Shown here: one piece after another, positions 3,979 through 38,534 of the stretch | Layout of the letters: each line of letters opens with the position of its first letter | How positions within the stretch are numbered: position 1 is the stretch's first letter | Assembly (NCBI GenBank): GCA_036172245.1 | Contig: JAYWIR010000005.1 | Location: 3,534,001 to 3,598,000 of the forward strand | Length of the DNA: 64,000 bases | Origin: Raillietiella orientalis | Taxonomy: Eukaryota | Direction: 5' to 3' | Notes under the pieces: generated by a model | The model's input: only the letters and a program-made list of their open reading frames with translations | Told to the model about the DNA's origin: nothing | Databases searched by the model: none | Translations under genes and position numbers: made by a program

Positions 3979-4184
3979 TTGCCACCCGGACACGCCGGGG
4001 CGTTTATTTCAAATTCTCTTTGGTTCGTGGTACGAGGCCCTACTACGGCCAACTCAACTGGACCTGCCGGGTCGCCGGTACGCAGACCGGCGCGACTCTC
4101 CTCGGCAGCGGAAGGGGGTGGGGGAAAAAACAAAAAGAAAAATAAAACATAAAAACAAAAAGATTTGGGAGGGTTGGGGAGGGA

Positions 4185-7100: not shown

Positions 7101-9700
7101 CAACCGGAAATGGTCAGACAGCTCCGACGCAACTTTCCCCCGTTTGCCGACCCGTGAATACAGATCGACATCCAGAAAGACGTGGTCGATGCTGCTGACC
7201 ATTTCCGAAAGATCCCCTAACAAGTTGCGCGTGCGCATGGCGGCGCACAACTCGTTAGCCGTCCGTTCCTGTGCGTGTGGCTCAGCTGACAGTAGGCGGA
7301 GATTAAAGTCTCCCGCTATCAGGTGAGCCACGCGCACGTTCGCTTCCGCCAGCCAGTCGCGCTTCAGGGTTTCCAGGAACGCCTTACGTTCCTGGTACCT
7401 GGTAGGACCGCTCGGAGCGTACACATTTGTTACGACGAGGTCGATCGTGTCGGACCACCTGAGAATCAGCTGGCCGACACGACCGGCTTCGTCAAAGCGC
7501 ACGCCCTTCACGGCTGCGTCGACTGCCGGCGTCATAAAAAACGCGACGCCGCAGGTGTATCGGGTGCCGCATTGCCACATCAGGCATCAGGCAGGGCGAC
7601 AGCTTAAGCCCCTTGCTCTTCAGCATCTTCTTTGAGTTGGTGCTGAGGGCAAACAGGCTGACGCTGGCCAACCTGCCGAGCTCTTGTCCAGGAACGCCGT
7701 CCGTGGCGGCCTATGCTGACGACCTGCTTCTCCTCTTACCCATGACCACCCCGGCATCCAGTCTCGAGGATTTCTTCGAGCTGATTCGCCGGGGAGCGGG
7801 CATGAGCGTAAACCGGAGCAAGAGCGTGGTCGTACCTATTGGTGCGGCGTGGGAGGGGCAGTCCGACTGGATCCGCCTGGGGATCCCGACCGCTTCCTCC
7901 GTGCAATATCTGGGCGTTCCGCTGGGGAACATCAGCCCAATGGAAGTGTGGTCGGACTGCCTTCGGAAGGCTTCGAATGCCCTGAGCCCGTTCCACCATG
8001 GCAGGTTCGTCCTGCCGGAGCGCGCCACGATATGGAAAACCTTCGTTGCCCCTCTCTTGCGCCCCCTGCTTTTTGTTTGCCCTCCCCCCTACTCGGCCAA
8101 GCTCCAGGCGCACAGCCTGTTGAGGAACGCTCTGTGGGGACCTGCGAGGTCCAGGATCCGCCTCAAAGACTTGGCGGCTCCGCGTCGGGATGCTGGCTTA
8201 GGCATCCTGACGCTGGAGAGAATCGAGCTGCAGGTGCAGCTTCGGATGTTGGCCCTGTGCGCCAACCTTTGGTCCACTCCGTGGTGCGCTCCCGCGCGCC
8301 TGCTTCTGCAGCGCTGCACAGGCAGCGATGGACTTCTGTCGCTGCGGCCGCACACGGAGCGCGCCACGAGAAGCTTCGGTTTCCCCTTGAAACCGCTGTA
8401 TCGGCTCCTGGAAGCCCAGGGATGGATCTCCTGCCGCCCAACGAACTTTAAAGCCTGGCGGCAGGAACCGTTGCATGGCTGGGCAAAGCACCAGGATGTT
8501 TCCCTCCTGGAACTCCGTTGCGCTCACCTCTCCCCGTACTGCACGGTGGATGAGGTGTGCAACAGCCAGGAGAAGTGGACCCGCCTGGCCGTCACCCCCC
8601 TCGAAGACGCACTGTCAGCCCTCAGGGCAAGAGATGACAGTTGCGAACCGGCGAGATGGGAGGTCGCCTGCACCATCGCAGGAACAACGCGACCTATTGG
8701 CGGCTGGAAGACTTGCGAGCTGGCGGACGCCGCCACGCCTCGCCACGTTCCGAAGGGACTCCTTCGGTGGAGCGAACACTTGAGTGTGCCCCTTGAAGAA
8801 CTTGTGGTTCCTCCCTCGTGTCTGAACACTTCTGTGTTCCCCCTTTCGTGGAAGCAGGACGTGATTATGCTGGTGCATTGGGGTTTTCACTCCAACCAGC
8901 GCACGGACCTTGTTTCCGGGGGAGTCGTCTCCCCAAACTGTAAGCGGTGCGGGGAAGTGGAAACGCTCCCGCACCTGCTCCTGGACTGCGGTGCCCTTCT
9001 AGGACTCTGGCGGAGGCTGGCCTCAGCTCTCCTGCACCAGGGGGACACCGCGAGGGATTTGATGCTCCGCTTCTTCACGCCAGGCGGCCTGTCATTGGGT
9101 GCTGTTGTTGCAACCGTGTGTTGCACCCGCGCCATCGACAAGGCCCACCGAGAGTTGGAGAAGCTGGCCATCCTTCGTCAGCCCACCGGATTAGCCAGCG
9201 CAAACATGTCGTCGGCTGCCCAGTGGGCCCATCTGCCACAGGGCGTGAGGAGAGAGATCGCCGGCATCCATCGCCGGTTCTGAAAGGAAGGAACGGCTGA
9301 ACCAAAGACCCCTGTCCCCTGCCCTCCATATCTTTATTTTTATTTTTTCTATACGGTGTATTTGTGGTCCCCTCCCTCCCGTTCCGGACTTTCGGCATAC
9401 CGACCTGCGTGTCGGGGATCCCACCCCCTTCGTCTCTTGTTTTCCCCTTTGTCCGGGAACCCTGTTCCCGGATAGTTTATAATAAACGCCCCGGCGCACC
9501 CGGGTGACAATCAACCGTCCCCCTGCGATCCTTTCGATCTCCTGGGCGTTCTCCGCGGTGATCACGTGGATCTCCTGCAGGAGTGCCAGGTCGGAGTCAC
9601 GCAGGGTGGCGGCCGTGTCCCGTCTGTTGCCGTCGTCGCGCAGCCCGTTCACGTTCCAACAGGCCACGCGTAATCGACGGCGACAGGCGAGCCCAGGTGT
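4185..9700 (-). pseudogene. B1 ORF2 (APE + RT + Cys/His finger), interrupted by C1 and frameshifted
   Basis: CWNVNG...LQEIH...GGRL|MWQCG...GDFN...SDH; KAPGEDG, WRPITIVNTDAK, DLHKAFD, QGDSLSP, YTDD; CIRCGE. Confidence 0.9.
7583..9510 (+). mobile_element. 5'-truncated element C1 (RT 3' half, open to 9283), antisense inside the B1 endonuclease
   Basis: Starts at GIRQGDSL; YADD; CKRCGEVETLPH; terminus AATAAACGCCCCGGCGCACCCGGGTGACAA; B1 sequence joins across it with only 3-4 bp duplicated. Confidence 0.92.
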
Positions 9701-11721: not shown

Positions 11722-14174
11722 TGGACACCGCAGATGCTCCACACACAAACACAAAAGAAACCAAACGCTTTAAACCAGGCGCGGAGGAGCGCTACAAAAA
11801 CACGTCCGCACGCCAAGTTGATAGCCAAGATGTGAGCAGAGCGTCTGGGACGGGTTGCCAACATCTTCATCCGCCCGAAACAGACATATGCTGTTCCCGG
11901 GCGAAGCATGGAGACGAACCTGTTGTACGCTTCCACCTGGCTAGAGCTCCAACATGAAAGGAGCTTGCTGCGCAGCCGGAATTCTGGTGCGTGCGCCGGC
12001 AAGGGGTTGGACGGTCGGGTGGGGGAGGGAGCTTTTGTGGTCGCAATCGACTTGCGAAAAGCATTCGATTGCGTCGACCAGAATTTCCTTCTGGAGCTTC
12101 TGGAACGCTTGGGCTTCCCGACCTCATTAGTAACCTATCTGCGCTCCTGCTGGCGCGACGCGCTCATGCATGTTACTTTCAGCGGGCAGACCGTGCACAA
12201 CGTGCCGGTGCGGCGTGGGAACCGGCAGGGAGACAGCCTGAGCCCCTTGCTCTTCAGTACCTACTTTGAGTTGGTACTGAGAGCGTATAGGGGAATTATG
12301 GCGCACCTGCCGCACGACTGTGCCGGTACGCCGGCCGTTTCAGCATACGCGGACGACCTTCTGCTGCTGCTCCCTATGTCCACCTTGGCTGCGGCGGTCG
12401 AGTAGTTCATTGACCTGCTGCATTGGGGAACCGGACTTACGGTGAACAGGGCGAAGCCGTCCGTGATGCCAGTTGGTACGGCGTGGGCAGGGCAGCTGGA
12501 CTGGGTCCGTTTGGGGATCCCCACGGTAAGGTACCTCAAGTACCTTGATGTACCGTTGGGGGACTACTCCCCTGCGGAAGCGTGGTCCGGCTGCCTTCAA
12601 AAAGTAGAGACGGCGATCGGCCCGTTCCGAGGCGGCAGGTTTTTCCTGCCTGAACGGGCCACGGTTTGGAACACTTTCGCGGCTTCTCTTCTCCGCTTCC
12701 TGCTTTTTACTTGCCTTCCCACAGAGAGAATTAAAAAGCGGACAAAGGACGACCTCCGTATCGGCCTTTGGGGCAACGGGAGGGCCCGATTCCGCTTAAA
12801 GGACTTGTGCGCTCCTCGTCGGGATTGTGGTCTGTGCCTCCTGACGCTGGAGCGGCTGGAGCTTCAGCTCCAGTTCCGCTTGTCGGCACTCGTTCCAGAG
12901 TTGTGGTGCACCTGTTGGTGCGTCCCTGCACGTCTCCTCCTTCAGCAAACCACCGGCAACACGGGACTGACGTCGTTTCTTTCACTCCGTCGCCGCGTCA
13001 ACCGAAGCGGACTCCAGCTACGGAGGGAGGCTGCGCTGTATCGCAAAAACCCAGGATTGCTCACCAGTCGGCCTTTGAACGGTGGTGCCTGGTGGCAGAA
13101 AACCGTTCGAAAGTGGAAACAGTTCGGCATGCAACGCTCCCAACAGGAACGAAGGTTCCTGTTTGGTAGTTACAGAAGTTGCACGCTCCGCGTGATCCTT
13201 AAGGATCCAAAGAAGAGAGCGTGGGCAGGAAGAACCCCCCTTGCTGCTGCGCTGCTCTCCCTGAGGAAGATCTGGACAGCGACGTTGCGGCGAAGTGGGA
13301 GGTTTGAGTTACAATCTCTGGAAAGGAGAAGAAGATAGGAAAGTGGAAGACGGGCCAGTTAACTGACGCTGGGTCCCCGAGTACGCCTCCCAATGGACTT
13401 CTGCGCTGGGGCGCGCTGCTCGATGTTCCTATTGAAGATCTGAAGTGGCCCCCGGTGCTCATTAAAACTTCCGCCCTTATCTTAAAATGGCAGGAGTCGG
13501 CTCTCCTGTTGCAGCACTGAAGACTCCCTTGCAACATTCGCCGACACCACTGGACCTGGGGAGCGGTGGACCCCAATTGCGTCAGGTGTGGGGAACGGGA
13601 GTCCCACCCCTAGTTTCTAGTGGATTGTGTTGTCCTTCGGTCCTTTTGGTTTCGCTTTGCCGCCGCCATCGGAATCCCCTGCGGCAACCCCAGGGACGCA
13701 CTGAAATCCCTCTTCGTTGCCGACGCCCTTCGGCCAGCGGCCTCGTTAGCAGCTTTGTGCTGCCTACGCGGGATCTTCACCGCTTGGAGCAAGGCTACGG
13801 GCGGACCACACGAACAGGGTGCCACTCAGCCTGCTTCCCAGTTCCTCAGGAGGGCGTCGCGATGGCCCCACCCTGATCCAAGCATGCAGCAAGAGCTTGC
13901 CGTCATCCTGCAAAGGATGGAACGGCCCCACCAGCAACTGTGATACCTTCCCTTACCATCCCAACTTTTCTTTTCTTTTTTGTTTTGTTTTTTGTTTTTT
14001 CCCCCTTTCCCCTGCTGCCGTGGTGGAGCGCACCGGTCTGCGAATCGGTGACCCGGCAGGCTCTGTGTTAGTTCGTGCGTGGCTGGAGCAATGGTCCAGA
14101 AACTCCACGTCTTTGTAAATGTTTTTTTTACGATAGACGCTTCGACGAAATCCGGGTAAAAATCAAACGCCTAG

Positions 14175-17100
14175 CGTGCTCCAGGGTGGACGCGTTTTCT
14201 CGGTGCTCCTCGTGCCAGGAAGTCTCCCCCAGTGCAAGCGTAGTGTGGTTCGGTGGTCGATCAGGCAGCGATGCCTGACGCGACCACCAGGGATGGCCAG
14301 GGGGCAGCGGAAACGCCGCCCCCAGAGGCGATGGAGAGCCAGGGGGCGGCGGCAACGTCACCCTTAGAAGCGATGGAGGTGGGGGCATCCGCCTTCACGG
14401 AATCGGTCCCCGCTGCAGCGCGGGCGTGGAGCGCCGTTGTGTCGGCGCCATCGCCTGCAGCCGCGGCGGAATTGTCGGCCTATGTGGAGGAGGGGTACAA
14501 CCCCTCATTGTTCTACAAGGTAGGCAATTTATATTCTTTAGAGAGCGCGCGCGCCTTCTCGAAGGACATGCGCGCTCTCGATGTGAAAGAGCAGGAGCTC
14601 AGCGCTATGACCATCCGCAGCGGGGTCTGTACGTTGAGGTCATCTGCAAACAAGCAGAGCTGGCCCAACGACTGCTTAAAACCCCCGTGGTGATGGGGAC
14701 GCGCAGGCTCCTCCCTACTACGGCGGACCGCAGCATGGTGGTCCACCTGTTAAGTGTTACCGTGCGGATGCGCAAGGAACAGGTTCGCGCCGGGTTGGAA
14801 GAATACGGAACGGTCCATGAGCACTGGACAACAGTTAGTCCTTTCGAGGACTACACGAGGCTGCAACACGGCCTCACTGCTGCGCGCGTGACCGTTCGGG
14901 AGGGCTGCACTCTTCCCCACAAACTGGTGGTCGAAGGCGAAACCGTCGACCTGTGGTATGTGGGGAAGCCGAAAGACTGTTTCTTCTGCAATACGTCGGG
15001 CTACCTCAAAAAGAGATGTCCTAATGTGCAGTGCCAAGTATGCGGAACCATGGGTCACACGAGGGAGGTGTGCCGTAAAGCAGCAGTGCGGCTGGTTCCC
15101 AAGAGAAACCTTAAAAACCGTGCCGGCTTCTGCAGAAAAGGCTGACTGCGAAAGCTGCCGCGAAGGCTGTGCCACCCGCGCCCAAGGCCCAGGCCGCACC
15201 CGAGACCCCGGCGAACAACGCCGAAAAAGTCAAGGGAACAAGCCAGGAGCCTGGGTGGCAGGTGGCTACTGCCAAAAAATGAAAGAAGAGGAGGATGGAG
15301 AAAAACCTCGCGTACCGCCAGAAATACAGCAGGCAAGCGAGCAAATTAAACAATGCAGCGTTGTTGTCGAGCGTATTCCCGACCGCTGCGTAAAAGAACT
15401 CGCCGCTACCGACGACAATCCCTCTGTTGACTCAGTCAACAGCGAGGGGAGCGAGCCGGCGGCGGCGTCCGTCATCGACACCAGCATCGATGACGTAGCC
15501 TTCGCGCGAGCCGCGGAGGAGCTGGCAGCCTCGTTGCAGCCAGAACCCTCCAAGGCTGGCAAAAAGGCCGTAAGGCGTCCGGACTCCCCTCAGGAGTCCC
15601 TCAATTCCGACCCCGAGGTGGAGGCCGGAAGCGCAGCCTCAGTTTCCACGGCACCGCGCAAGAAGGCTGGACGTAAGTCCACAAAGCCAAGGAAGCTCGT
15701 CTCCCCCGTCGAAGGGGAAGAGATGGCTTCCGCAAGCGAGGGTGCCATGAGCGTGGGAAACTCTCGGGACCCGTCGCCCGAGAAACTCCCACGCGCAGAC
15801 ACGGAGGGGATGGAGGGGGTGGAGGCCGAACAGGTGCCTCAGGTGCCTGAGAAGGCCGAAACCCCCATGGACATCCCGCCTGCCTCGCAAGAGGAGGGCT
15901 CCCCCACACCTTAATCTTCCCAGCAGTAATGCCGGGAATCTCCTCCCGCCGTCGTCTGCGCATCGCCGTTTGGAACGTGAACGGCATGACAGACGCCGGC
16001 AGGAGACGAGACATGGCCGCCCTTCTGGAGTCCAAGGACCTTACGCTGCTGCAGGAGATCCACGTGATCTCAGCAAAACAAGCGCAAGAGATTTCTTACC
16101 CGGTCACGCCGGGGCGTTTCTTCCATATAACGTAACCAAAAAATGCAATTATACAAAATAAACCAGTTGTGTACCAAACTCCCAACTGACGACTGAACAA
16201 GAATGAAGAGAATATTGCTGGCACGCAGGCCAAAGTAGCAGTTTTGTGAACGGTGTGGGGGTGGCGGGGAACACAAAGAAACCAAATTAAAATAAAAACA
16301 ATGAATAAGGGCGACGGGGTAAAGGTCTTTGGGATCGCTCTGGAAGAAACGGGGATAAAAGCATGGGCACGGGAAATTTTACCGAGCGAACGGGGACGGG
16401 GTATGGGTGGGCGAGAGGTCGCAGGGGTCACCGGATTGTGCCGGTCTCAAAGGTGTGTAAACCGGCGATGTATGCCGGTGATGTCCTCATTCACCTTGTC
16501 ACAAACATGAGACCACCTTGAAGCCTTCTCCATGAATTGAGCTGCAAGCAGGTGAGCCTATGTTCGCTGCGCTGACAACTCCTGGGCGTAGCGGGCCTTC
16601 ACGATGGCGCGAACGCAACACATGGTTGCGGCAATCGCGCCAACCGAAAGTCCATTTCTGCTGAAGAAGCGTTGCAGCACATCAATGGCAGTGCCTTCTT
16701 GTGGCATGATGGCCTAAGTGAGCTTTCGCCACAGTTCCCGGAGGTCACCGCAGTCCAGCAAAAGGTGCGGAAAAGACTCCATCTCTCCGCACCTTAAACA
16801 GTTTGGCAAAGCGGCTGCCCCGGAAACGATTCTTCGCTGCCTATTACAGTGTAATGTACGATGTAAAAAGAGCAGCACATCTTGTTTCCACTTAAGGGGG
16901 AACACGGAGCTGTCCAAACTAACGGGGGGAACCACTATGTCTCCAAGGGGCACACTTAAATGTTCGCTTCACCGAAGCAGGCCCTTCGCCCGATTCCGAG
17001 GTAAGGCGGCTTGCACCAGCTCCTTTGTCGTCCAGTTGCCGAGGAGCTTACTGACTCCCGGTATTTTGCAGGAGAACTCCCATTCCGCCGGTAGGAAACC

Positions 17101-19675
17101 GTCGTTGCTTGCCCTGAGGGCAGACAGCGCTGCGGCGAGTGGTGTGGCGGCCAGACGATCCGACAACTTCTTGTCCTGCATGACTTCGTCCATTTGATGA
17201 CTGAGGAGAAGTCGCAGTCGTCGAAGATCTTCCGGGCGCGTTCCTTCGGAAGCTTCCCACGATGGAAAAGATTCCTGCCGCCATAGATTAATGTTGATGG
17301 GGCGGCAGGAGATCCAGCTTTGGGCTTCCAGCAGTGAGGACAGCTGCCTCAGCGGGAAGCCAAACCCTATTCTGGTGTGCCGAATGTGGGGTAGCAACGA
17401 AATCAGTCCCTCGCTTTCCGTGCAGCGCCTCAGTATAAGGCGTGCGGGTAAGCACCACGGCGTACACCACAGCTTGGCACAGAGCCGCAGCATGCGAAAC
17501 TGCACCTGCAGTTCGATGCTGTTTAAGTCGAGGATGCCCAAACCTGCATCCTGACGCGGCGCCACCAAGTCTTGAAGTCTAACACGGGATCTTGCAGCGC
17601 CCCACAACGCTTTGCGTAGAAGGCGCTGCGCCCAGACTTTGACTTCCTGGGGGGGTGGACAAACAAAAAACAGGGGGCGGAGGAGGGGGGCAACGAAGGT
17701 GTTCCAGATGCAGGCCCGTTCCGGCAAGACGAACTCGCCTCCTGAAAACGGGCCAAGTACACGCTCTGCCTTCCGAAGGCAGTCCGACCACGCTTCTGAG
17801 ATGCAGAAGTCGCCCAACGGCACTGCAAGGTACCTGAGGTACCTGCCCGTGGGGATCCCCAGGTCGATCCAGTCGGACTGCCCCTCCCACGTCGCACCCA
17901 CCGGAACAACCATACACTTACTCCTGTTAACGCTCACGCCCGCACCGCGACGAATCAACTCAAAGAAGTCTTCAAGCGATGTCGCCGGGATAGACATGGG
18001 TAACAGGAGAAGCAGGTCGTCGGCATAGGCTGCCACGGCCGGCATACCTAAACAGGAGCTCGGCAGGCTGGCTAGCGTCAGCCTGTATGCCTCCAGCACC
18101 AATTCAAAATAGATGCTGAAGAGCAGCGTGCTTAAGCTATCACCCTGCCTAATTCCTCGTCGTTCCGGTACGCCGTACACGCGACAGCCACTGAAAACAA
18201 TATATGTAATCGCGTGGCGCCAGCAGGAGGGCAAGTACGCCAACAGGGATGCCGGAAGACCCAGACATTCCAAAAGCGCAAGAAGAAGCTTTTGGTTCAC
18301 GCAATCGAAAGCTTTGTGCAAATCGACTGCAACCGCCAAGGCTCTTGGTGTCTCTTCTTTGCGTCCCGCGCCTCCGTCGGTGAGAGATCGAAGGCGTCGA
18401 TTCCGCACGACGATCCACCGCCACACGATGCTGCTATTGCAGCTATGTGCGGATGAACAAGAAATTCGCGTCCATGGACCGCCCAGGAATAGCGTACGTC
18501 TGCTTCAAGCTTACCAAGGATTCCTTGATTCTACCCATCCGCGCCACCCAAAGTTTCGATAACAACTTGACGTCCGAATTCACTAATGTGATCGAACGCC
18601 AGTTGTTCAGTTGGCGGAAATCTCCGATTTTCGGCAGTAGACGCAACTGCGCTTATCGAAACGAGGCGGGGACATCGCCCGAGTCTCCCATCAGCGACGA
18701 GATTTAAAGCATCAGGGGGATGAGCTCCACCGCAAAACACTGGAAGAATTGCGCGGGGAGCCCATCTTCGCCTGGCGCTTTTCGTCTATTGAGCCCCGAG
18801 ATGGAAGAGGAAATTTCCTCTGCCGTGAAGGGCTCATCAAGACGCGCGCGTTCCTCCTCGTGCACAACAGGTGCATCAATCGGCAACAACAACCGAAAGA
18901 GGCTGCGTTCCGTCGGTGCCTCTGCATACAGAGAAGAGTAATATCGCCTGACTATCCGTCGCACGTCGGCTGCAAATGCAGCTATGTGCGGATGAAGGAA
19001 CGCAGGAGATCGAACGGATCTCCGGAGGGCGGCTATCTTACAGGTGTGGGAGAGCGAAAAGTTGCGGTGTCGCCTACCTGCTTCGGCCAGCCGTCGAGGC
19101 CACGGCTCGGGGCGTGCGGTTCGACGATCACGTTCGTGCCGGCCAGCTGACTCTCAGTTGGTCCGACTCGATCGTTCTGATCGTCACGAACGTGTACGCA
19201 CCGAGCGGCGAAAACCTGAAGACCAGGAGAGCGAGGAAAGAGTTTTTCCTTGCCCTCCGGCGAGACTGGCTGACCAAAGCAGGCGTGCGGAATGCCCATC
19301 TGGTAGCAGGCGATTTCAACGTTCGCCTGAAACCAGATGGGCAGAATCCCGAGCGTGACCTGGTAAACGAGGTGCGCATGGCAGTGCACACCTGTAATCT
19401 GTTGGCCAGTGCACCGAGGATGGAAGACAGCATTGACCACGTGTTTCTTGACGAGAATCTGTGCCCTCGCGTGGGCAGGCGCGGCAAGTTACCGTGCGAT
19501 CTGTCCGACCATCGCCCGCTAGTCCTCGAGATCCATCCGCGCGACAGGGGCCCCCCCTCGTCAGCGTGCCGTCTCCCAGGGGACTGGAGCGGTGGCTGGA
19601 GCAATGGTCCAGCCACCGCACGTCTTTGTAAATGTTTATTATACAATAAACGCCCCGGCGGAATCCGGGTGAAAA
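14175..19675 (+). mobile_element. Element A2, head-to-tail with A1; interrupted by E; lacks the whole RT (deleted from the EN end to the 3'UTR)
   Basis: 5' GGACGCG at 14188; disrupted ORF1 14271-15929; EN at 15929-16092 and 19011-19587; terminus CCGGGTGAAAA; downstream flank TCGAACACCTTG at 19676-19687. Confidence 0.88.
16093..19000 (-). mobile_element. 5'-truncated element E (RT + C-terminal region), antisense inside the A2 endonuclease
   Basis: KAPGEDG, DLHKAFD, QGDSLS, YADD, CLRCGE, stop at 16447-16449; terminus CCGGGTAAGAA; TSD CGCAAGAGAT (16083-16092) / CGCAGGAGAT (19001-19010). Confidence 0.9.
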
Positions 19676-22600
19676 TCGAACACCTTGAGGAGATCGACCG
19701 CGACCGCCAAGTCACCTGGCGTTCCCTCCTGCCGTCGGCGCCTGTTTTTCTTGCTCGCGGCAGTGACTTTCGCAGCAGCCTGGCTTTGCTGCGCCACAAC
19801 TTGCTGCAGCTGCATCCATGTACGCGCGAAAAGGATGTTCGCCTCCATGGATCGTCCCAGAACCGCGTAGGTTTGTTCCGGGCTCACCACAGATTCCGCG
19901 ATACTTCCTAACCGCGCGACCCACAGCTTGGAAAACAACTTGACGTCCGAGTTCACCAAGGTGATCGGACGCCAGTTGTTAAGTTGACGCAAGTCTCCGC
20001 CTTTCGGCAGGAGACGCACCTTCGCTGAGCGGAAGGAATCAGGGACATTCCCGGATTCACTCATCAGCGTCGCGAGTTTCTGCATCAAGGGAATGAGCTC
20101 CACTTCAAAGCACTGATAAAACTCTGCAGGGAGCCCATCCTCGCCTGGCGCCTTTCGTCTCTTCAGCCCAGCGATGGCGGACGAAAATTCATCCGCCGTG
20201 AAGTGCTCATTGAGACGTTCGCGTTCCTCCTCGCCGACAACACGATCATCCTCAGACAGGAGTATCTCAGAAAGAATATCCTCCGTCGGGGATTCCGGTA
20301 GAGCGAGGAGTAGTAGCGTCTCACAATGCGGCGTACTTCGGCTGGAGCCCTACATTCCTGGCCCTTGTCGTCAAACTGGCATGCTGCTCCGGACTGCCAG
20401 ACTTGGCGCTCGGCCCTCGCCTTGTACTCTGCGAGACGCCCGACATCCGCGCGTCTCGAAAACGTGCGGGCCTGCAGAAAGTCTCTACTGTTGGCCACGC
20501 CCTCTCCGAAACCGCGTGGAAGCCGCTGCAAGGGGAATTGGCAGCAGAACTCGCGGACAGATCTTTTGAGATCGTCCCAGTCCGCAAGTTCTTGAATGGC
20601 AAAGCCTCGGAGGTATCCACCTAGATGCTCCGCAGACTCCGGTTGGCTAGGTTAATCCGCCTGCATCCTCCAGTTTTGCAACCGAGGCCCCCTGCCAGGC
20701 GGAAGGATCTCAAACTCCAACCTCTGGTGGTTAGAAAGCCTAGTCAACAATCTTCCTCTCCTACCCACACGCGAATGCAGGTTTTTATCGAGGAAAACGT
20801 GATCGATCGATCTTTCCATTCCAGGTTCGCTGGCCATCAAGTTAGCGGCGTGCACGGACGCGCCCATCTCGATGGGCAGCGCGCGCTCCCTCGGGCGGCT
20901 CCAATCGTCGGAGAGCAGGCGGACGTTGAAGTCCCCAGCGACGAGCTGCGCCACTTGGAAGCCGGAGTTGTTGAGCCAGTGGCTCTGCACCTCACCAAAG
21001 AAAGCTACTCTTTCTTCGAGGTAGCAAGAGTCACTCGGCGCGTAGACGTTCGTAACGACGAGATCGATGGACTCGGACCACTTGATGACAAGCTGTCCTA
21101 TCCGTTCGTCGTCATCGAAACGAACACTACGCACCGCTTCCGCCATTTTTCCTCTTACGAGGAACGCGACGCCGCACGTGAGTGCGCCGCCGCACCGCCA
21201 ATGTAGCGTTCCGCCTGCGCGCTCCTCGATTTCGGCTGCCTGCTCGTCGGAGATTACGTGAATCTCCTGCAGGAGCGCGAGGTCGCAGGGACGCAGGGCG
21301 TTGGCTACTAATCGCCTCTTTTCGTCGTTCTGTAGTCCGTTTGCGTTCCAACACGTTACGGACAGACGACGAGAAGACGCGATTCCCCGCATTACTGCTG
21401 GGAAGGTGGCGGCTTTTTGCTCGCTTTATCCGGCAAGCAGACGGCGAGCAGCACGACTGGCTGGAAGGAACGGTCGCCACCGTCCTCCGTCGTGCTGCAT
21501 GCATGTAATGCCTCCACGCCAGGCTTAACCCCGTCGGGTTTCGTGGAGACTTCGCGTTGCTTCGCGGCGAGCGTTGCCTGGCTACCTACTTTTAATCGGC
21601 GCGCACACGCTTTTGAACAAGTTGTCCTCGTCTCGGTGATCGGAACGGCATCTATTTCGGAGTCCGACCGGCGCATGTTCGATCGGGTTTCGGCCTTCCA
21701 CGAAGTAGTGACAGGTTCTGCTGGATTGACAGCTGTCCTGTTTTCGTTTTTTGTCACCAGAGCATCGCTTTTGGTGACGGCTGCTTTCCCGGCGCGCGCG
21801 TTTTCAGCGTGCTCACGCGCAGTTGCACGAGGGACCTTTGCTGAAGTCTTCTTTACTTCATTACGGTTCCTCACTTCGCCTGGCGCCGTAAATGGAGATC
21901 GTGCTCCATTGCCATCTTTGAAGCCATCCGCGTCTTTAAACGGGAGCAGTTTCGATGGCTCCGACACGCTCGTCATGGACGCTGCCTTCGGAAGGGCTTT
22001 TATTCCCTTCGTTGGCATGGCATCCGTGCCAGTCGAGAGCTTGCTCTTCGACTGCGACGGCGTGAGATTTTTCTCCGCTTTCGCGGTGTTGGATCGCGAC
22101 GCGGATTTTTTTTTGCCGACTTTGGAAGTCGACACGGCACAACCCTTCTTACCCGATTTGGGCTTCTCAGCCACTGCAGGAGGTGAAGGAATGGATCCGA
22201 CGGTACTGGAAGTGTCCTTACCGCCGTTGTCCATTGGCGTCCCCGCCAGTTGCTCGAACTCCGAAGGAGCCGGGCGTGCTTGGGAAGGACAGCTATTGCG
22301 CCTAGGGGGACCTACCATTGCCTCGCATTCTCCGCACCCTTTCTTTTGCGACTTCCCTGCCGCGAGTGGGGGCGCGCAGGGCTTCGCGTGCTAGTTTTCC
22401 TGCTGCTTTGGGGCGACATTCCGCTTCGCGTTTTTACGGAATTTCTGCCGTGGGGTCTCCAGGTTTTATCGCATATTTTTTCTTTTTATCCGCGCTTTGT
22501 TTTTTAAGATGGAGCTCCGCGGCTACCTTTTTTCGCAAAAGATCCGGGCAATATTTCAATTGGTGCCCGGATAGTCTGCAATAACGGCATTTTCCAGAGG

Positions 22601-23393
22601 GGCATTTATCCAAACAATGCCCCTCCTTCTTGCATTGCTCGCACGTTCTTACTTTGCCCACGAACCACAGGTGAACGACCGTGTCTTTCACCTGTAGTTT
22701 GGTGGGCAGCAGACGGCGGTCCGGCATTGTAAGCCGGACTCCAGCGACTCCGCTTTGTGTGGACGGGAAGTCCTTGATGTTTCTATGCACCCTCCACAGC
22801 GCATCGACCGTGGCGAATTTCGCCAACGTGTTCCGAATATCAATATACAAGATTTCCGACTCGATGTGGAAAATCTCCGCCACAAATGAGTCGTCCATGG
22901 CGGCCGGGAAGACCTTCTGGCCACGGATCGACAACCGGGTGCGCAGCAAGCGTTGCCCAAGTGCAGCGTTTTTGCAAAGCACCTTGAAATAGCCCATATC
23001 CTTTACGGGCATAATGGCGAGGAGGTCCTCCTCCCGCACGCCAACACGGGTCAGTTCATCGTTGAACTGATTCCCGTCGCGCGCGAAAAGAAAACCACTC
23101 ACCTTATATCGGAGAGCAGGTATATTGCCTTGGGCTACGTATGCCCGCAACTCCGACTCGTCGAGTGGTTTACCTTTCACGGCTGCTGTGGCGGCAACGT
23201 CAGCAAAACTTCTCTCCATTGGCGAGAAAGACGAAGTGAAGGCGGCCGCCGGTTCCGCGATAGCAGATCCGGATGCTGTTCCTCCAGCTTCAGTAGCTTC
23301 GGGTTGAGTCGACATCGCCGTAAAAATGTACGACGCCAAGATGGAGCGGATGAAAGCACGGAGAGGAGAGTGAAGAAAAACACGTCCGCACTC
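19676..23393 (-). mobile_element. Element D1 5' half (ORF1 23315-21392; ORF2 from 21392 to the RT DxxKxFD motif, where A2 interrupts it)
   Basis: 5' GAGTGCGGACGTG; CEQCKKEGHCLDKC and CRYCRLSGHQLKYC; TAATG junction; APE motifs; AVDLLKVFD. Confidence 0.92.
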
Positions 23394-25693
23394 GATTGAA
23401 ATCTCCCACAATCAGGTGAGCCTTCCGCACGTTCGTGTTCGCCAGCCAGTCGCGCTTCAGGGATTCAAGCAGCCTGGTGCCTTCGCTGTATCCCTGTTTA
23501 CCGCTGGGGGCGTACACATTCGTGACGATCAGATCGATCGAGTCGGACCAGCCGAGAGTCAGCTGACCGACCCGACCGTCGTCATCGAAGCGCACGCCCT
23601 TCACGGCAGCGTCGATAGCCGGCTTCACGAAGAACGCGACCCCGCAGGTGTTGCGGAGGCCGCATTGCCAGTACAGCCGACCCCCCGCGATCGTGTCGAT
23701 CTCCTGGACGTCTGCCGCGGTGATCACGTGGATCTCCTGCAACAGGGCCAGGTCGAACTCCCGCAGGGTGTCGGCTGTATCTCGCCTGTTACCGTCGTCG
23801 CGCAGCCCGTTGACATTGCAACAGGCCGCGCGAGTCCGACGGCGACTGGCGAGTTCAGAAGTTTCTCCTAGGAAGATGGCAATGCGGCGTCCGCCACCTG
23901 CTGGGGTGGGACGCTAGGTGGAGGAGGAGGGTCAGGTGCTGAAGGCACCTGGTCCCCCTCCTCCATAGGTAGCGGCGCGTCGAGCGGGTCACCCACAGGT
24001 GGGGTCGCGCCTATCTGTTCGCCCTCCTCGATGTGGGCGGGCTGTTCAGAGTCGGCGCCTGCAGGGAGGACTTCACCCTCCTCCATGGGGGTGGCCGGTT
24101 CGACGGCTTCCGGGCGTGAGAATTCCTCCTCCGAACTTCCCACGCTGGTGACGGCTTCCGTCTTCTCCTCCTCGCTGGTGGAGGGGAGGCGCCTCCTGGG
24201 CTTCTGGGAATATCGTTCCGACTTCCTGGGGGGTGCCTCCGAGGAGAAGGATGTACTTCCGGCCCCCGGGTCTAACTCAACTGTGGGGGCCTTCTTCGCA
24301 GGAACCGGCCTTCGCACGTCCTTGCGCGAAGGGTTCTCACGCTCGGCCAGCGTGACCGCGAGCTCCTCCTCCGCCTGCGCGAACGCGGCGTCCGCGGCTT
24401 CGACCGCCGCTATGTCACGCGGCTCACCCTCTGTGTAAACAGAGGGTTCGCCGTCGCGAGCCTCGGCCGCGACGGAAACGGCAAGGAGAGGATCGTTGCT
24501 CCGGGTGGCAACCTCGGGAACGACGATTCGTTCCAGTGCCACCGTGCACTCGCGCAGAGTTTTCGAGCGCGGACCGGGTTTTTTCGGCTTACCGGCCGTC
24601 TTGCGCTCTTTGCTCTCCGCGGGTGGGAGTTTCTTTGGCTTTCTGACCTCTTCATGCTGCCATCCCTCTTCGCCTTCCACCGTTTCAGAAGGTTTATCCT
24701 CCGGCTTACGCGCCAAAGGTTGAGGTGTTGGCAGCTTGTGCTGGCCGTTTACCACTTTAGGTCTAGAGACCTTTGAAGCGCGTTTCCCCTGCGGTTTTTT
24801 CGCGGCAGGGGGAACTGGGGTGGGGCGTTTGGGGCACACGCGCTAAACGTGGCCCCGCTCCCCGCACAAATGGCATTGTATATTGGGACACCTTTTACGT
24901 AGGTGTCCCACGGTATCACAATGCCCGCAATACCGGGGCTTTCCTACATACCACAGGTCGACGTTTTCTTGCGCCACCTGTAGTTTGTGGGGAAGCCCAC
25001 AATTCTCCCTTACGGTGACCCGCGCTGCCGCCTGCCCACCAAAAAGGCTATCGAAGCCGTCGAAAATGGAGGGTTTCGGCCACAGTGCGTGCACCTCACC
25101 GTACTTTCGCTGTTCCTCACCAACCGCTGACCGCGTTATGCGGCTGGTGATGCCAGTCATGTGGACCACCACGGAGCGGTCCATTGATACTGGCAGGATC
25201 TTGCGGCCGTCTACGTTCAGCGGCGCATGGATTAGGCGGTGAGCCAAGGTGACATCTTTGCAGACCACCTCGACCCGCTGCCCGCCGCTGAGGACGGAGA
25301 GGCCGTCCAGATCCTTCTCAGTGACATTCGCGTCCTTCAACGCTTTGCTGAAGGCGCGCGCTGTCCGTCCGTCGAACAAGTTGCCTACCTGGTAGACAAG
25401 CGATGGCTTGTACCCGGAGGCCTTGTATGCGGCCATCTCCGTCATGGCTTCTGCGCTGGGCGCGGCCACCATTGCGCTCCATGTCTTCGGCGTGGCCGGG
25501 GATGATTCCGGGGCGGCTGCCCCTGCTCCAGTAGGCTGTGGGGGCGTAATAGCCTCCCCCACTCCCACCTCCATCGCGGTGTCCTCTGGCGTCGTGGCCA
25601 TTGGACACCGACGATGTACACAAAACACCACACACAAGAAAGCGCTTTCCTACTACTCTTTGAGGAGTGAAGGAAAAACACGTCCTCCAACTA
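23394..25693 (-). mobile_element. Element F1 5' part (ORF1 25601-~23865; EN up to GDFN, where D1 interrupts it)
   Basis: 5' GGAGGACGTGTTTTT; CGHCDTVGHLRKRC; LQEIH...NVYAP...AHLIVGDFN. Confidence 0.9.
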
Positions 25694-25891
25694 GCCTAGG
25701 AAGGGGCTGGCTGCAACGAAACTGCCAGCTTCTCCGCTGCTCGCGCGAAGGCTACGTCATCGATGGTGGTGTCGATGACGGACGCCGCCGCCGGCTCGCT
25801 CCCCTCGCTGTTGACAGAGTCAGCAGAGAAGAGGTCGTCGGTAGCAACGAGTTCTTTTTCGCAGCTGTCGGGAATACACTCGACGACAACG
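25694..25891 (-). mobile_element. Family A ORF1 fragment (A2-like subtype), bounded by the F1 and G insertions
   Basis: VVVECIPDSCEKELVATDD...SEGSEPAAASVIDTTIDDVAFARAAE matches A ORF1. Confidence 0.85.
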
Positions 25892-27660
25892 GCCGCACGG
25901 ACGTGTTCTGTGTTGCCCCACGAGCGTGATTCCTTGCCGTATTTATGTGTGTGGTGTGCCCGAGTGCGTCCACTGGGATGTCCACGGAGCCCCTGCAGCA
26001 AACGATGAATGTGGAGGCCGCTACTGGCAGTAAAGACTCTACTCCAGATGTCCGGTCCGCCTCTGATTCTTGTGTCTCGCCACCGGCGAGAAGCTTCGCC
26101 ACCGTCGTCAAGGCGGCGGCAGCCAACGGAGCACCGCCCGACGAAGCGGAGCTGCAGGCATATGCAGCTTATGGCTACAAGCCTGCGCTGTGCTATCCGA
26201 TGAGTGCTGCGAAATCCGACGGGGTCGGAGAAAACCTTTGGGATGAGCTTTTGCTCGTCCGGGTCCGACAGGACGACCTGCTGGCCGTCATGCCGGTTAA
26301 CGCGCTCGGACACTGGGAGGTGCACTGCAAAGAAGCATCCCTAGTCCAGCGCCTTCTCCGATCCCCGCTAAATGTCCACGGGAAGGAGGTCGTCCCGTCG
26401 GCCATGGACCAGTCGTTCGTGGTCCGATTGTCCGCCGTCCAGGTGAACACGCCCGATCGCGTGCTCGTCGCTGCACTTACTGCAATCGCCACGGTGCACG
26501 CGCTGTGGAGAGCAGACAATCCGATCAAAAGGATTGCATCTCTCCACAGCGGACTTTCCATGGCGCGTGTCACCATAGCGGATAGGAGGCAAATGCCTCC
26601 GCACTTGCAGGTGGGCGATGCGATCGTCCACCTTAAATTTGCCGTTCAGCGACCGGCTTGCGGCATTTGCGGTGCAGAGGGCCACCGTCCGTGTACGTGC
26701 CCTTCACGCAACTGCCGCTATTGTAAACAGCTCGGCCACTCCATCAAAGAGTGCGCCAAGCTGAAGAGAAAGCGGCAGGCGAAAAGCCGTCAACAATCGA
26801 CCCCGTCCGCGCCGAAAAGATCTTCCGTTGTGCCACAGATGAAATCGGGCGCGAAGATGGGGCATCTTCGAGTGGCGGTCCCGCGAAAAAGGGCACGGTT
26901 GCTTCAGGGAAGCCACCATCCCAGACAGCCGCGCAGACGGGAAAGATGCCACGTCGCCCTGGGGGCAAATCTCCCCCTCCGAAGCAGCCTATGAGTGCGG
27001 GTACGCACTCAATCAAGGTTGCTGAACCGTCGGCGTCCATTTCCGCGTGCAGCGGAACACACGGGAAACGTGCGCGGGCACTCTCGTAGCTGCTTGTGAA
27101 CGGCAGTCTCCTCCTACGGCGGTGGAGATCACGTCTTCCACGCCGAAGGCACGAGCAGCGAAGGCTGCAATAGCGCCTCGCGGGACGACGGCAATGACCG
27201 CCGTTTCGCCCGCATCGGCTAAGGAGCAGGTGCAGTGCGTAACGGGGACGGAGCCGTCTCCCGGCGCGAGCGCGAAACGTGAGCCGGCATCTCCGGTCAA
27301 ACAATTGAGGGAGGCGTCGGCCTCCCAGGAGGGCGTCCCCGACGCGGGCTGGACTCGCGTCTCCAGGACGCCCACATAGGGGAAGAAGAAGGTTCACCCT
27401 TGAATATTCCCCATCCTTAAGGTGGGTGGGAGGCAAAAGAGAAGCACGCCGAAGAAGGTGCGTACCGAGGTACGCACTACGGCGGCGTGCTCTGTCGCCG
27501 TCGCTCCGCGCGAGAGGGCGGCTGCGGAAGCCAAAGCTCCGGAAGCTGCGTTGGCGAATGCGACGATCCCCGCGCGGGCAGGGCAAGCCTCCACCTGCCG
27601 AAACAAAAAGAGACTCGCAAAACGCCAGTCTCGCGCCAGGAACGCAGTCCGGGCACACTG
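25892..27660 (+). mobile_element. Element G 5' end and ORF1 (ATG 25978), 3'-truncated and frameshifted
   Basis: 5' GGACGTGTT at 25899; CGICGAEGHRPCTC and CRYCKQLGHSIKEC; homologous to D and H ORF1. Confidence 0.85.
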
Positions 27661-28895
27661 AGATTTCGGAACGGGAGGGGCAGGGACAATAAATAAATAA
27701 ATTGGGTGGAAGGGCGGAGATAGGGGTATACAGTCTGACCGTAGCTATTCTCAGAACCGGAAGTAGATGCCGCGGATCTTCGTCCTCACTTCTGCTCCCA
27801 GGTGTGGCCACCCGGCAGCCATTTGCAGGTTGCAGGCTGCGGTGTCGGGGAGCGAGTAGGGAGGGGGACAAACAAAAAAGAGGGGACGGAGGAGGGGGCA
27901 ACGAAAATGTTCCACACGAAGGCTCGTTCCGACAGGAGAAACCTGCCGCCTTGGAACGGGCCCAGAGCAGTCTCGGCCTTGTGAAGGCAGTCCGACCACG
28001 CTTCTGCTGGACAGAAGGCGCCCAAGGGAACGCCGAGGTACTTCAAGCACCTGCCCGTGGAGATCCCCAGGCGGATCCAGTCGGACTGTTCCTCCCACGT
28101 AAAGCCAATCGGTGCAACGGTTGATTCCGTCCTGTTGACGCTCAGGCTCGCTCCCCGACGAATGAGTTCGAAGTCCTCGAGCCTGGACGCAGGGGTGGAC
28201 ATGGGCAGCAGCAGGAGAAGGTCGTCAGCATAGGTGGCCACGGCTGGTGATCCCAGGCAGGACCTCGGCAGGTTGGCCAGCGTCAGCGTGTACGCGCTCA
28301 GCACCAACTCAAAGAAGACGCTGAAGAGCAGGGGGCTTAAGCTGTCTCCCTGCCTGATATTCCGCCGTATGGGAATGCCGTACACGTGGCGCCCGCTAAA
28401 AGAGATACAGCATAACGCGTGGCGCCAGCAGGAGCGCAAGTAGGCGATGAGGTGCGTCGGGAGGCCTAGGCGTCCCAGAAGCTCCAGAAGGAGGTGCTGG
28501 TTTACGCTGTCGAACGCTTTGCAGAGATCGACGGCGACCGCTAAGGCTCCCGGCGTTTTATCCTGCCTTGAACACCGCGGCTTACCTTTGGCAGCGGCGA
28601 TTTCGGCTGCCTGGTTCTGCTGCGCCACGCGCTGCTGCAACTCGAACCATGTTCGCGCGAAGAAGAGATTCGCGTCCATGGACCACCCCGGAACAGCATA
28701 CGTCTGCTCCGGACTTACCAAGGATTCCGCGATTCTCCCCAGGCGCGCGCCCCTTAGCCTGGAGAACAACTTGACGTTTGAATTCACCAAGGTGATAGGA
28801 CGCCAGTTGCTGAGGTGGCGCAAAACACCGCCTTTCGGCAGGAGCCGCATTTTTGCTGAGCGGAAAGAAGCGGGAACCCGTATCACGCATCAGCG
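27661..28895 (-). mobile_element. Element M, RT fragment with an internal deletion and partial 3'UTR
   Basis: WRPITLVNS, DLCKAFD, QGDSLSP, YADD, KYLGV; jumps from VCPPPYS straight to the last ~30 codons (WPHL...FRF*). Confidence 0.88.
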
Positions 28896-30398
28896 AAGGT
28901 CACGTACGGACGTGCTTCTGCGTCGCTTCGCGGTAGATTGGCCCTTGTGTGTTTTTGTTCTGCTGTGCTTCTGTGCTGCAATGGGAGCAAAGAAGAACAT
29001 CAGCCGCAAGAAGGGAACGCCACCTGCTCCTCAAATGGCTGCTTCGGCTGCCAGCAAGGAGCCTCTGTCCTCGCCGACGGCGAAGACATTCGCCCAGGTC
29101 GCTGCCCTCGCGGCTACGATGGGACCTTCGCCCGACAGCTCTGAGCTTCAGGCGTATGTAGCAAATGGCTACACGTCTGCACTCAGGTATAAGGTAAGTG
29201 TCCTTATGCCTGAGCGGGTTGGGCGCGAGTATGGCCAGGAACTCCAACGGATTGGAGTTCAAAAAGGCCAACTGGAGTCCATCATGCCAATGAGTGGGTG
29301 CAGCTACTGGGAGGTGTCCAGTAAGGACGCTCTCCTTACGCAGCGTTTGCTGCACACGCCGCTGCTCATTCGTGGGCAGGAGATACTCCCTGTCACAACG
29401 GACCAGTCGTTCGTTGTCCGGCTCAGTGGAGTGTGTAAGGGCCATTCGGACCGTCAGGTCGTGGAGGCCCTTGAAAAATTCGCTACCGTCCACGCGCTTT
29501 GGAGACTGCCAAACCCTGCTGAAGGGTTCGAAGACCACCACAGCGGGCTCGCGCAAGTGCGAGTGACGATGACGGATCGCCGTGCAATGCCCACGCGACT
29601 GCAGGTGGATGGAATGACCGTCCGCCTGTGGTAGGTAGGGCCCGTGTGTAGGGCAAACGCGTGTATGCGCGGAATGCGGGCAGGAGGGTCACCGCATTAC
29701 GAAGTGTCCCTCGGCCGCTTGCCGTTACTGCCACGAGCACGGGCACACTAAAGGAACGTGCCCGGAGCTCCTTTTAAAAAACGAAAAGCGCAGGAACGAA
29801 TCGCGTTCCGCATTGCGGAATAATCGCCGCGAATCGAGAGAAAGAAACATCAAAGCTCCAAAAAGCGTTGCGAAAACCGCGACCACGCACGTGCAGAAAA
29901 CTGTTTCTCGCCCCCACAAAGAAGGGGTGAAAAACAAAAAAACTCGTCGCGGCAAAGCCTCCGGCTATAGACCCGAAGGAAGCTCGCGAAGAATGCGACC
30001 TTTCTACGAGACCTCGCAGCCAATTGTTGAATGCAAGAGACATTGTGCCGAAGGTCAAAGAGCCTCGTACTGTCGGCATCACGACCGCGAAGCCTCGTAC
30101 CAAGGCCTCGACGAGCGGCGCGGAATGCGGTTGTTCGCCCGATACGGGAAAAACGCGCCCGCGGTCAAAGAACACCGCGCCGTGTGAAGCTACCGCGGCC
30201 AAGGTGCCCCAGGCCAGGAGTGCCGCGAAGAAACAGCCGGCAAACCCGCAGTCCTCGCGTGCGGACGCAGCGCCTACTGCGGCCAAGGAAGAAACTGCTA
30301 GGGCGAGCACAACCACTACAGCAGTGCCCCCAACGGTCGCAAAGGCAACGCGCGAACCCTCCGATCTGGAGGAGGCAGCGCCTCTCGCGATCGCTAGG
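28896..30398 (+). mobile_element. Element H 5' end and ORF1 (ATG 28981), disrupted and truncated by J
   Basis: 5' GGACGTGCTT at 28908; ELQAYVANGY..LRYKVS; knuckles CAECGQEGHRITKC and CRYCHEHGH. Confidence 0.85.
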
Positions 30399-33500: not shown

Positions 33501-34052
33501 GCTTGCTGTTCGCCAGACCAGTCCGAACTCGTCGGATAGCCGTCGATACGCCGTCCTTCCTCTGGCGTCTTCTGAATGTATGATCTCATCCAAGATGTTG
33601 AGATCGCCAGCAACAATCACGACGTCCTTAGGGGTGACCTTTTGCCGGAGTGCTGCATGCAGCGCCTCCGCACAACGATGTTTTAGCCTGTGCGGCTCGT
33701 ACACGTTCACCAGGATAAGGTGAACAGTTGCGGACCAGGCCAGTCGCACGCCGATGATTCGTCCGGGTTGGGGACAGAACACTTCCAGAATAGTGGGGGC
33801 TAAGTGGTTCTTTATTAGCACCGCCACACCCTTCGTGTTCCGTTCTCCTTCGTTGACGAACATCTGCCCGTTGAATCGCCGTTCTATTCGCTGGCTTATC
33901 TCGAGACCCATCCTGGGGGTCTCCTGCAGGCACACGATGTCTTGTTGTGCGATGGTCCGCACAATCCTTCTTCTTTTTCCCTGGTCGACCACAGTGTTTA
34001 CGTTCCAGGAGGCGATGTTCAGCCTCCTGGCGGTCGATAGGGAAGAGGTCAT
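30535..34052 (-). pseudogene. J ORF2 (APE + RT + Cys/His finger), with frameshifts near 33400 and 31810 and further stops
   Basis: Consecutive ORF-track segments 33390..34157, 31813..33405, 31330..31791, 30964..31236 and 30535..30963. Confidence 0.88.
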
Positions 34053-34065
34053 AAAAGGGGAAGAC

Positions 34066-35826: not shown

Positions 35827-35895
35827 CCTGGCAGCCGCTTCTTTGAGGCCCTCTTCGCGGAAGGCGAGGAGCAGGAGCAGCGTGGTTTGAATAAT

Positions 35896-37030: not shown

Positions 37031-37039
37031 CTCCCCTTT

Positions 37040-38530: not shown

Positions 38531-38534
38531 TCGC

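Follow-up and report, generated by a model that had tools for sequence, protein, structure and literature searches.

A 64-kb island of nested LINEs in Raillietiella orientalis, probably built by site-specific families that insert into the coding motifs of their relatives

Long interspersed nuclear elements (LINEs) that insert into specific sequences are known for ribosomal RNA (rRNA) genes, small-RNA genes, telomeres and microsatellites, and in the Tx1 group the targets are small nuclear RNA (snRNA), tRNA and 5S genes, with Tx1L found in the Tx1D transposon. R1Bm, an R1 element of the 28S ribosomal DNA (rDNA), is described as a sequence-specific LINE of the apurinic/apyrimidinic endonuclease (APE) type (PMC1919474). 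Nested Zepp clusters with a guanine-plus-cytosine (GC) content of 61% are described from green algae (PMC3446292); Zepp and ZeppL are presented as L1-type LINEs that insert into existing copies (PMC3446292, PMC8226300, PMC9940879), and for Chlamydomonas a single ZeppL family is described (PMC9940879). Non-random nesting between families is reported for the long terminal repeat (LTR) retrotransposons of plants (PMC6911290), and Celine, a centromeric LINE of poplar, is described from centromeres rich in transposable elements (TEs), where it is often nested in other TEs (PMC11288735). Here we describe a stretch of 64,000 nucleotides of Raillietiella orientalis (contig JAYWIR010000005.1, positions 3,534,001 to 3,598,000; hereafter the window, in which all coordinates are counted from its first letter). 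It is a LINE-only island built by several related L1-superfamily families, designated A, D, F, H, X/J and G. They are best described as site-specific, kin-targeting LINEs, with a precision like that of R1 and the Tx1 group and a lifestyle like that of Zepp.

The likeness to Zepp and ZeppL is one of lifestyle: in both cases L1-type LINEs insert into existing copies and form GC-rich nested clusters that consist nearly entirely of LINE, as far as the algal clusters are described. Unlike Zepp and ZeppL, the window contains several families with different base-defined sites in coding motifs, and these families are without a poly(A) tail. Moreover, Zepp arrays are described as mostly 3′ ends, owing to 5′ truncation, with a single cluster on each chromosome, whereas the families of the window often have complete 5′ ends. 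With R1 and the Tx1 group they share an endonuclease of the AP type, one defined multicopy target, a fixed target-site duplication (TSD) and the possibility of tandem copies. Their targets, however, are reverse transcriptase (RT) motif A, RT motif 1, the GDFN motif of the endonuclease and the first open reading frame (ORF1) of other LINEs, and host and guest are relatives able to swap roles. The nested elements of plants are, as described, LTR elements with a regional preference, whereas the window holds LINEs with base-exact sites and TSDs. Celine is described with unique TSDs and a loose AAGA/AATA nick preference (PMC11288735), whereas the families studied here reuse a site of 8-15 bp. LINE families that target each other's coding motifs were not found in the literature covered, which leaves aside subscription journals and Repbase reports.

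LINE sequence, present on both strands, makes up the window except in the region from about 36 to 39 kb, and GC content is 0.51-0.62 across the 64 kb and 0.55-0.62 over the LINE part. At least 12 nested LINE insertions are present, and up to four levels are reached, where D2 lies in F2, F2 in A-II and A-II in the minus-strand RT W (numbers denote copies of a family). When 121 stop-to-stop ORFs with a minimum length of 160 amino acids (aa) were scanned against Pfam, 28 gave matches, and the only informative families were RVT_1, Exo_endo_phos, zf-CCHC, which is present in the ORF1s, and one weak zf-RVT; a single weak DAO match lies beneath an Exo_endo_phos match. In the best-preserved ORF2, the 909-aa frame of D2 (Table 1), the endonuclease (PF03372, aa 26-233) is N-terminal to the RT (PF00078, aa 474-745). 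This order within one ORF2, together with TSDs (8 bp for D2, 10 bp for F2, 12 bp for A-II and 13 bp for H1) and no terminal repeats, is that of the L1 superfamily. Human L1 ORF2p is the solved structure closest to the D2 protein (E = 2e-43), while R2 proteins score about 1e-14. No close relative was found in a collection of 5.8 billion proteins, where the 45 matches were at best 24-25% identical and none was usefully named, and an ESM Atlas search returned only generic RVT_1/Exo_endo_phos clusters. A poly(A) or simple-repeat tail was found at none of the eight 3′ ends detected in the window; L1-clade LINEs without long tails exist. Rfam and tRNA scans of the window gave no match, so there is no recognisable 5′ ribozyme.

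Copies of the A family are inserted in antisense orientation at TCGAACGCCTTG, which on the opposite strand reads AAG GCG TTC GA and represents K-A-F-D in motif A of the RT. The window contains six A termini, three 5′ ends and three 3′ ends, and each of them is located at a 12-mer with at most two mismatches from TCGAACGCCTTG. The RTs that A has entered, Z, W and D1, differ from one another: identity to D2 is 95% for D1, whereas for Z it is 72% in nucleotides and 57% in amino acids. The flanks in Z and W are alike only over about 75 bp beside the junction, at roughly 70-75%, and A-I and A-II are therefore independent insertions. In spite of this independence they differ by only 5.3-6.1%. Judged by its landing sites, A is a generalist for RT genes with the 12-mer.

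The H family is related to F, with 81% identity in the 3′ part. In A-I as well as in A-II it lies antisense at ..GCGGACGCCAAGTTG/ATAG (a slash marks a junction or nick here and below), where RT motif 1 encodes N-A-D-A-K-L-I. The full-length H1 has a 13-bp TSD and H2 is 5′-truncated with a 473-bp flanking repeat, but the 3′ junction of the two is identical. They are 10.3% apart, compared with 5.3-6.1% for their hosts, and their differences are strongly synonymous (92 against 48.8 expected; none of 3000 permutations reached 92). H1 and H2 are thus demonstrably two independent insertion events. The site specificity of A and H is shown by the window, as are the junctions and TSDs of the insertions and the L1-type domain order. 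The 15-nt core of the H target is identical in the RT of H2 itself and one base off in F2, so that H can strike itself and its kin. The repeat around H2 (55840-56312 and 58940-59412, 4.4% diverged) consists of A sequence in direct orientation and is either an unusually long TSD or the trace of two joined A copies.

D and F are present twice, in two nests. Nest 2 is a clean four-deep nest on the plus strand. Its outermost layer, W (41457-41536 and 61753-62120), is split at the K-A-F-D codons by A-II, which is itself in three pieces. The junction between the first of these pieces, A3, and F2 reads ...CCAAGGC/CAGTAGGAGGACG (between 42894 and 42895), and A resumes at 54471 with a repeated CCTCCAAGGC, a 10-bp TSD of F in the A-II ORF1. 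Similarly, F2 resumes at 51115 with a repeated TTTCAATC, the 8-bp TSD of D in F, the cut lying directly after G-D-F-N.

For nest 1, the preliminary description had proposed a closed cycle in which A2 interrupts the D1 RT, D1 interrupts the GDFN motif of F1 and F1 interrupts an A ORF1, with the A>F>D order recurring at 41537-54480. This chain is confirmed to the base, and the recurrence holds, there with both flanks and TSDs. The 3′ end of A2, ...CCGGGTGAAAA, stops at 19675 and adjoins the D1 RT, which from 19676 reads TCGAACACCTTGAGGAGATCGACC, corresponding on the other strand to the V-D-L-H-K-A-F-D codons of the D RT; in the uninterrupted D2 the identical string is located at 48905-48931. On the minus strand F1 reads ...GGAGATTTCAATC/GAGTGCGGACG at 23406-23393, with its GDFN codons at 23406-23395 followed by the D 5′ end, and the position of this junction is identical to that between F2 and D2 (45206 and 45207). 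The remaining host of nest 1 (host1), a 198-bp fragment of an A ORF1, reads ...CCTAGGC/TAGTTGGAGGACG. The A hosts of the two nests were said to differ in subtype, and they do: host1 has a 9-bp deletion and 9 substitutions in common with A2 only, two sites in common with A3 only, and 14 private changes. As D and F are full-length with clean TSDs in nest 2 and their junctions recur identically in nest 1, where the A host belongs to a different subtype, we infer that they are as site-specific as A and H. The F site was also considered as a degenerate H site, which was rejected because only 4-5 of 14 positions match by eye.

It is unlikely that the same base of an element of 5.6-5.9 kb is struck twice by chance, and the two nests therefore call for either site specificity or copying. 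In the preliminary description they had been regarded as independent events and not as an inverted duplication, which is now better supported by host divergence, the asymmetry of derived changes, a synonymous excess in F and unshared stops, but is unproven. From comparison of the copies we consider it likely, although well short of certain, that nests 1 and 2 are independent site-specific hits and that nest 1 is the older one. On the other hand, nest 1 could have been copied from an A>F>D nest that existed beforehand, either through an inverted segmental duplication or because A copies recombined or underwent gene conversion and took the insert with them, in which case F and D were inserted once each and their site specificity is only apparent; we regard this as possible but clearly less probable. 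Several observations weigh against two independent hits. The nests form one collinear blastn alignment (19676-25857 against 48924-42731, 94.56% over 6196 bp), their junctions are base-identical, and the divergences of the inserts are statistically equal (F1/F2 120/2299 = 5.22% ± 0.91; D1/D2 187/3717 = 5.03% ± 0.70), as a duplication predicts. The D1/D2 differences fit neutral decay (53 synonymous against 50.2 expected under a permutation null that keeps the mutation spectrum and the CpG context, P = 0.35). The features that host1 shares only with A2 lie nearly all within its first ~45 bp and are mixed afterwards, a mosaic such as a conversion tract ending inside A would give. Rearrangement of the region is demonstrable: on its left side the A-I/A2 tandem is flanked by RT Z and not by D1, which means at least one rearrangement here. 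Nest 1 lacks sequence on either side, F and D are each represented by only two copies in the window, and relatives of the families were not found in the metagenome contigs searched. Perfect A targets stand unoccupied in D2 (48913-48924), H2 (58396-58407) and J2 (62574-62585), so occupancy is far from saturating. Suggestive of independent hits, by contrast, is the one public read run that contains the stretch (X1, with 0.48 of the sampled words). It yields a 3755-bp contig on 45177-48931 with 64 differences and no gap, 1.7% from D2 and closer to it than D1 is; the contig includes 30 bp of F-type flank and has a depth of 15, compared with 4-5 for the listed A and F ORF1 contigs, but instead of a third D copy it may represent an allele of D2.

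Some of these arguments lose weight on closer inspection, and further observations point the opposite way. The independent pair A-I/H1 and A-II/H2 also gives one contiguous blastn alignment across its junction (2135-6581 against 54469-58919), so that the single block shared by the two nests does not by itself speak for a duplication; independent A-I and A-II copies are likewise about 5-6% apart. As the independent pair A-I/A-II also appears neutral (22 synonymous against 19.6 expected), dN/dS, the ratio of nonsynonymous to synonymous substitution, does not discriminate alone. The block does not stop at arbitrary breakpoints; each of its ends coincides with the end of a LINE that was inserted later, namely the 3′ end of A2 at the canonical target and the 5′ end of G. 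The divergence of the layers had been suggested as a check, a duplication predicting equal values in all three, and uniform divergence was not found: the host layer, with 31/198 = 15.7% overall and 14/164 = 8.5% in its 3′ part, is above the inserts (binomial tests against 5.1%, P = 3e-8 for the 198 bp and P = 0.04 for the 164 bp), and the difference in host subtype points the same way. F1 and F2 differ by an excess of synonymous changes (36 against 24.8 expected under the same null as for D, P = 0.006), which counts against duplication because an F already broken by D should, once duplicated, differ neutrally. Two dead duplicates should also decay alike, and the unequal load of derived changes speaks against them. 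When amino-acid differences are polarised with the other families of the window as outgroups, the derived changes of nest 1 and nest 2 are 42:12 for D and 23:9 for F with the nest-2 query (together 65:21, P = 2e-6), and 36:14 and 17:11 with the nest-1 query (together 53:25, P = 0.002), although the asymmetry of F is not significant with the latter (P = 0.34) and to that extent favours a copy. No disabling mutation is common to the nests: none of the four stops seen is shared, and the three 1-bp coding indels are differences between the copies and hence private by definition. A further possibility, that nest 1 arose when D was retro-copied and F and A went along by 5′ transduction, was rejected, since the flank beyond host1 is a G 5′ end and not GDFN and the host is too diverged.

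Further joints in the X1 reads were considered. A joint 45197>51114 (side 21), a candidate empty F site, was left uncounted because it may be the uninterrupted GDFN of H1 placed on F; joints at 56319/56320 are most simply the A2/X and H1/J1 junctions of the window itself; and one of these, 55320>56320 (A-type GDFN, antisense 3′ end, side 21), matches no junction of the window and is too short to use. Two other runs, X2 and X3, contain hardly any words of the stretch and matched it only with low-complexity pieces around 54272-54326.

Neither independent hits nor a copied nest account for the truncation of nest 1 or for Z as the left flank of the A-I/A2 tandem. The 3′ halves of D1 and F1 and the 3′ part of host1 were not found in the window at 85% identity or more (self-blastn), and at 25891/25892 host1 and the complete G 5′ end stand head to head, the remainder of host1 being absent. 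We infer from this arrangement that the distal halves were probably lost by recombination between A copies of the same orientation. The same absence, together with the flanks Z and D1 that do not match, could also be taken as a sign of an assembly artefact, that is, of false joins between copies that are 90-95% similar, chiefly at the distal halves of nest 1 and at the A-I/A2 tandem. The X1 contigs listed on the stretch are all at most 3.8 kb and leave the long-range order without validation. However, all examined junctions have the exact ends and target strings of real insertions, unlike random false joins, and such an artefact is very improbable. As an observation apart, the A ORF1 contains a near-copy of the A target, TCGAACGCGTTC with two mismatches, at the VVVE codons (1949-1960 and 42696-42707), and this site is the exact point where host1 ends and G starts.

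Taken together, kin-targeting site-specific LINEs of the L1 superfamily are the explanation of the island that we find best overall, and one that we hold somewhat more readily than we doubt it. According to this explanation, the endonuclease of each family would nick a family-specific sequence inside LINE coding regions, and insertion would proceed via target-primed reverse transcription. A would enter antisense at TCGAACGCCTTG, with a 12-bp TSD; H would enter antisense at the RT motif-1 codons GGACGCCAAGTTGAT, with a TSD of 13-17 bp; D would enter in sense at the D-F-N codons of the F endonuclease, with the TSD TTTCAATC; and F would enter in sense at CCTCCAAGGC in the A ORF1. The bottom-strand nicks predicted for the A, H, D and F endonucleases are A/TCGAAC, A/CTATCAAC, A/TTTCAATC and A/CCTCCAAGG, respectively, and D would be expected in F-type endonucleases with the flanks ..GGAGATTTCAATC and TTTCAATCTCCGC. 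Since every landing site is within another LINE, new copies pile up, and chains such as A2-D1-F1-A would arise routinely.

The cycle itself can be placed in the nesting graph of the window, in which A is inserted into Z, W and D and in tandem with itself, H twice into A, F twice into A, D twice into F, X into A, J into H and W, G into A and G2 into the minus-strand RT K. The 3-cycle A>D>F>A is part of this graph, as expected if all families land in LINE coding regions; it arises as a side effect of kin-targeting and is no mechanism of its own. The preliminary description regarded the families as contemporaneous, and the nesting order host1 < F1 < D1 < A2 supports such an overlap in time, with A active before and after F and D. 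Its proposal of a rock-paper-scissors-like dependence was not supported in this form. A true closed dependence would mean that the sole landing site of A is D, that of D is F and that of F is A, so that none of the three families could persist without the others. This is improbable: a cycle is present in one nest, but A is located in motif-A codons of three or more RT families and also stands in tandem with another A copy, the H target core is in the RT of H itself, and nothing in the window indicates that any family needs a particular other family. What else could be said for such a dependence is that two families appear to spare their own copies. The K-A-F-D codons of A itself (AAA GCA TTC GAT) are three bases off the A target, the D-F-N codons of D itself (GAC TTC AAC G) are three bases off the 8-bp site of D, and the A-type GDFN sites of the window (3/3) are unoccupied by D. 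These codon differences are a hint of self-sparing. Tentatively, and with more doubt than confidence, they may be extended to a guild of sister LINE families that have split kin coding sequence into family-specific sites, some of them sparing their own copies through synonymous site changes, so that a self-renewing and self-contained network of mutual parasitism would result. If such a guild exists, each insertion kills a rival copy and adds new targets, and the network might give rise to a LINE-only domain of the chromosome, possibly a centromere, and sustain it. Kin-targeting as such, if true, would provide a concrete molecular rule for the growth of LINE-only islands and a set of natural endonuclease variants with different 8-15 bp specificities for comparison, and it would make competition and self-sparing between transposon families testable.

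All families have the same general organization of their termini. The 5′ ends consist of a short family-specific leader followed by GGACGTGTTTT, and ten 5′ ends carry the family 5′ motif with at most two mismatches (A-I, A2, A-II, H1, F1, F2, D1, D2, G and G2); X, J1, J2 and H2 are 5′-truncated. The 3′ ends consist of AATAAACGC, a loop of 4-5 nt, GCG..CCGGGT(G)N0-3 and then 2-4 A, as at 51087-51114, 54443-54470 and 61725-61752. Within this module (AAACGC, a variable loop of CCCG, CATG, TTCG or CCCGG, GCG and CCGGGT) the CGC/GCG hairpin is conserved, and the module is probably an RNA element recognised by the RT; its stem is invariant and thus shows no covariation. The 5′ end of D gave no match in metagenome contigs, and none of 70 metagenome loci that match the shared 3′-end pattern has blastn or tblastx similarity to the window, so these loci are chance matches. 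The coordinates of the elements discussed are given in Table 1.

Table 1. Elements and target copies of the two nests and of their surroundings, in order of position in the window
Feature	Position	Strand	Identification and remarks
A-I, 5′ part (A1 of the preliminary description)	748-3978	+	preceded by TTGAACGCCTTG in minus-strand RT Z (6-747)
H1, full length, antisense in A-I RT motif-1 codons	3979-11811	-	TSD GCCAAGTTGATAG (13 bp)
A-I, 3′ part	11812-14162	+	blastn to 59402-61762, 90.8%; 3′ end
A target copy TCAAACGCCTAG	14163-14174	+	between A-I 3′ end (14162) and A2 5′ end
A2, 5′ segment (leader, ORF1, endonuclease start)	14175-16092	+	blastn A1 739-2683, 90.7%; GGACGCGTTTT at 14188; tblastn
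X, 5′-truncated LINE inside A2 endonuclease	16093-19000	-	3′ motif 16119-16092; tblastn ORF2 aa 362-909
A2, endonuclease segment	19001-19587	+	blastn A1 2674-3258, 93.2%
A2, terminal 84 bp	19592-19675	+	family 3′ end ...AATAAACGCCCCGGCGGAATCCGGGTGAAAA
D1, 5′ 3.7 kb (leader, ORF1, endonuclease, RT to K-A-F-D)	19676-23393	-	5.03% from D2; tblastn aa 1-584; cut by A2 at A target
F1, 5′ 2.3 kb (leader, ORF1, endonuclease to G-D-F-N)	23394-25693	-	5.22% from F2
host1, A ORF1 fragment ending at F target	25694-25891	-	A2-like subtype in first ~45 bp
G, 5′ end of full-length-type LINE	25892-27857	+	leader CCGCAC + GGACGTGTTCT; ORF1 43% identical to D ORF1
A target copy TCGAACGCCTTG 5′ of A-II	41525-41536	+	partner TCGAACGCCTTA at 61753-61764; 12-bp TSD
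A3, 5′ part of A-II, host in nest 2	41537-42894	+	blastn A1 93.7%; 5′ motif at 41550
F2, 5′ part	42895-45206	+	junctions and 5′ motif
D2, full length	45207-51114	+	909-aa endonuclease+RT ORF (47174-49900); flanked by TTTCAATC
F2, 3′ part (rest of endonuclease, RT)	51115-54470	+	3′ end ...CCCGGGTGTAAA
A4, middle of A-II	54471-56312	+	starts with TSD copy CCTCCAAGGC
H2, 5′-truncated, antisense in A-II RT motif-1 codons	56315-58919	-	3′ motif, tblastn
A5, 3′ part of A-II with family 3′ end	58940-61752	+	then A target in minus-strand RT W

The element X consists of the RT and the C-terminal part, with 71% amino-acid identity to D2; A2 resumes at 19001 and has an internal deletion at 19587/19592. 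In nest 2, one frame of 1058 aa (41351-44524) runs from the A-II ORF1 through the 5′ leader of F2 into the F2 ORF1, so that F2 is in frame with the ORF1 of its host; in the counterpart in nest 1 there is a TAG stop in CCTAGGC directly before the host1/F1 junction. The in-frame position of F2 may be due to chance, or F may be expressed from host transcripts.

J1, a plus-strand element at 7587-9510, splits H1. Its sequence and that of J2, which passes the window end, are 99.45% identical over 1268 bp (7582-8849 and 62733-64000); by this measure J1 and J2 are far younger than all else in the window, and the island has probably been active recently. Close to ORF2 aa 461-462, plus-strand elements interrupt two minus-strand RTs, the G2 5′ end in K (27858-28889) at 28890-28908 and the truncated 5′ end of J2 in W at 62100-62120, which is possibly a further common landing site. 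A different LINE is located on the minus strand at 31333-35925, with a 619-aa ORF1 containing a zinc knuckle, a 275-aa endonuclease and a 590-aa RT; it is 27% identical to the D2 ORF2 and stands outside the kin-targeting families. The region of about 36000-39700, with a GC content of 0.51 and hardly any LINE homology, is possibly the sole non-LINE DNA of the window.

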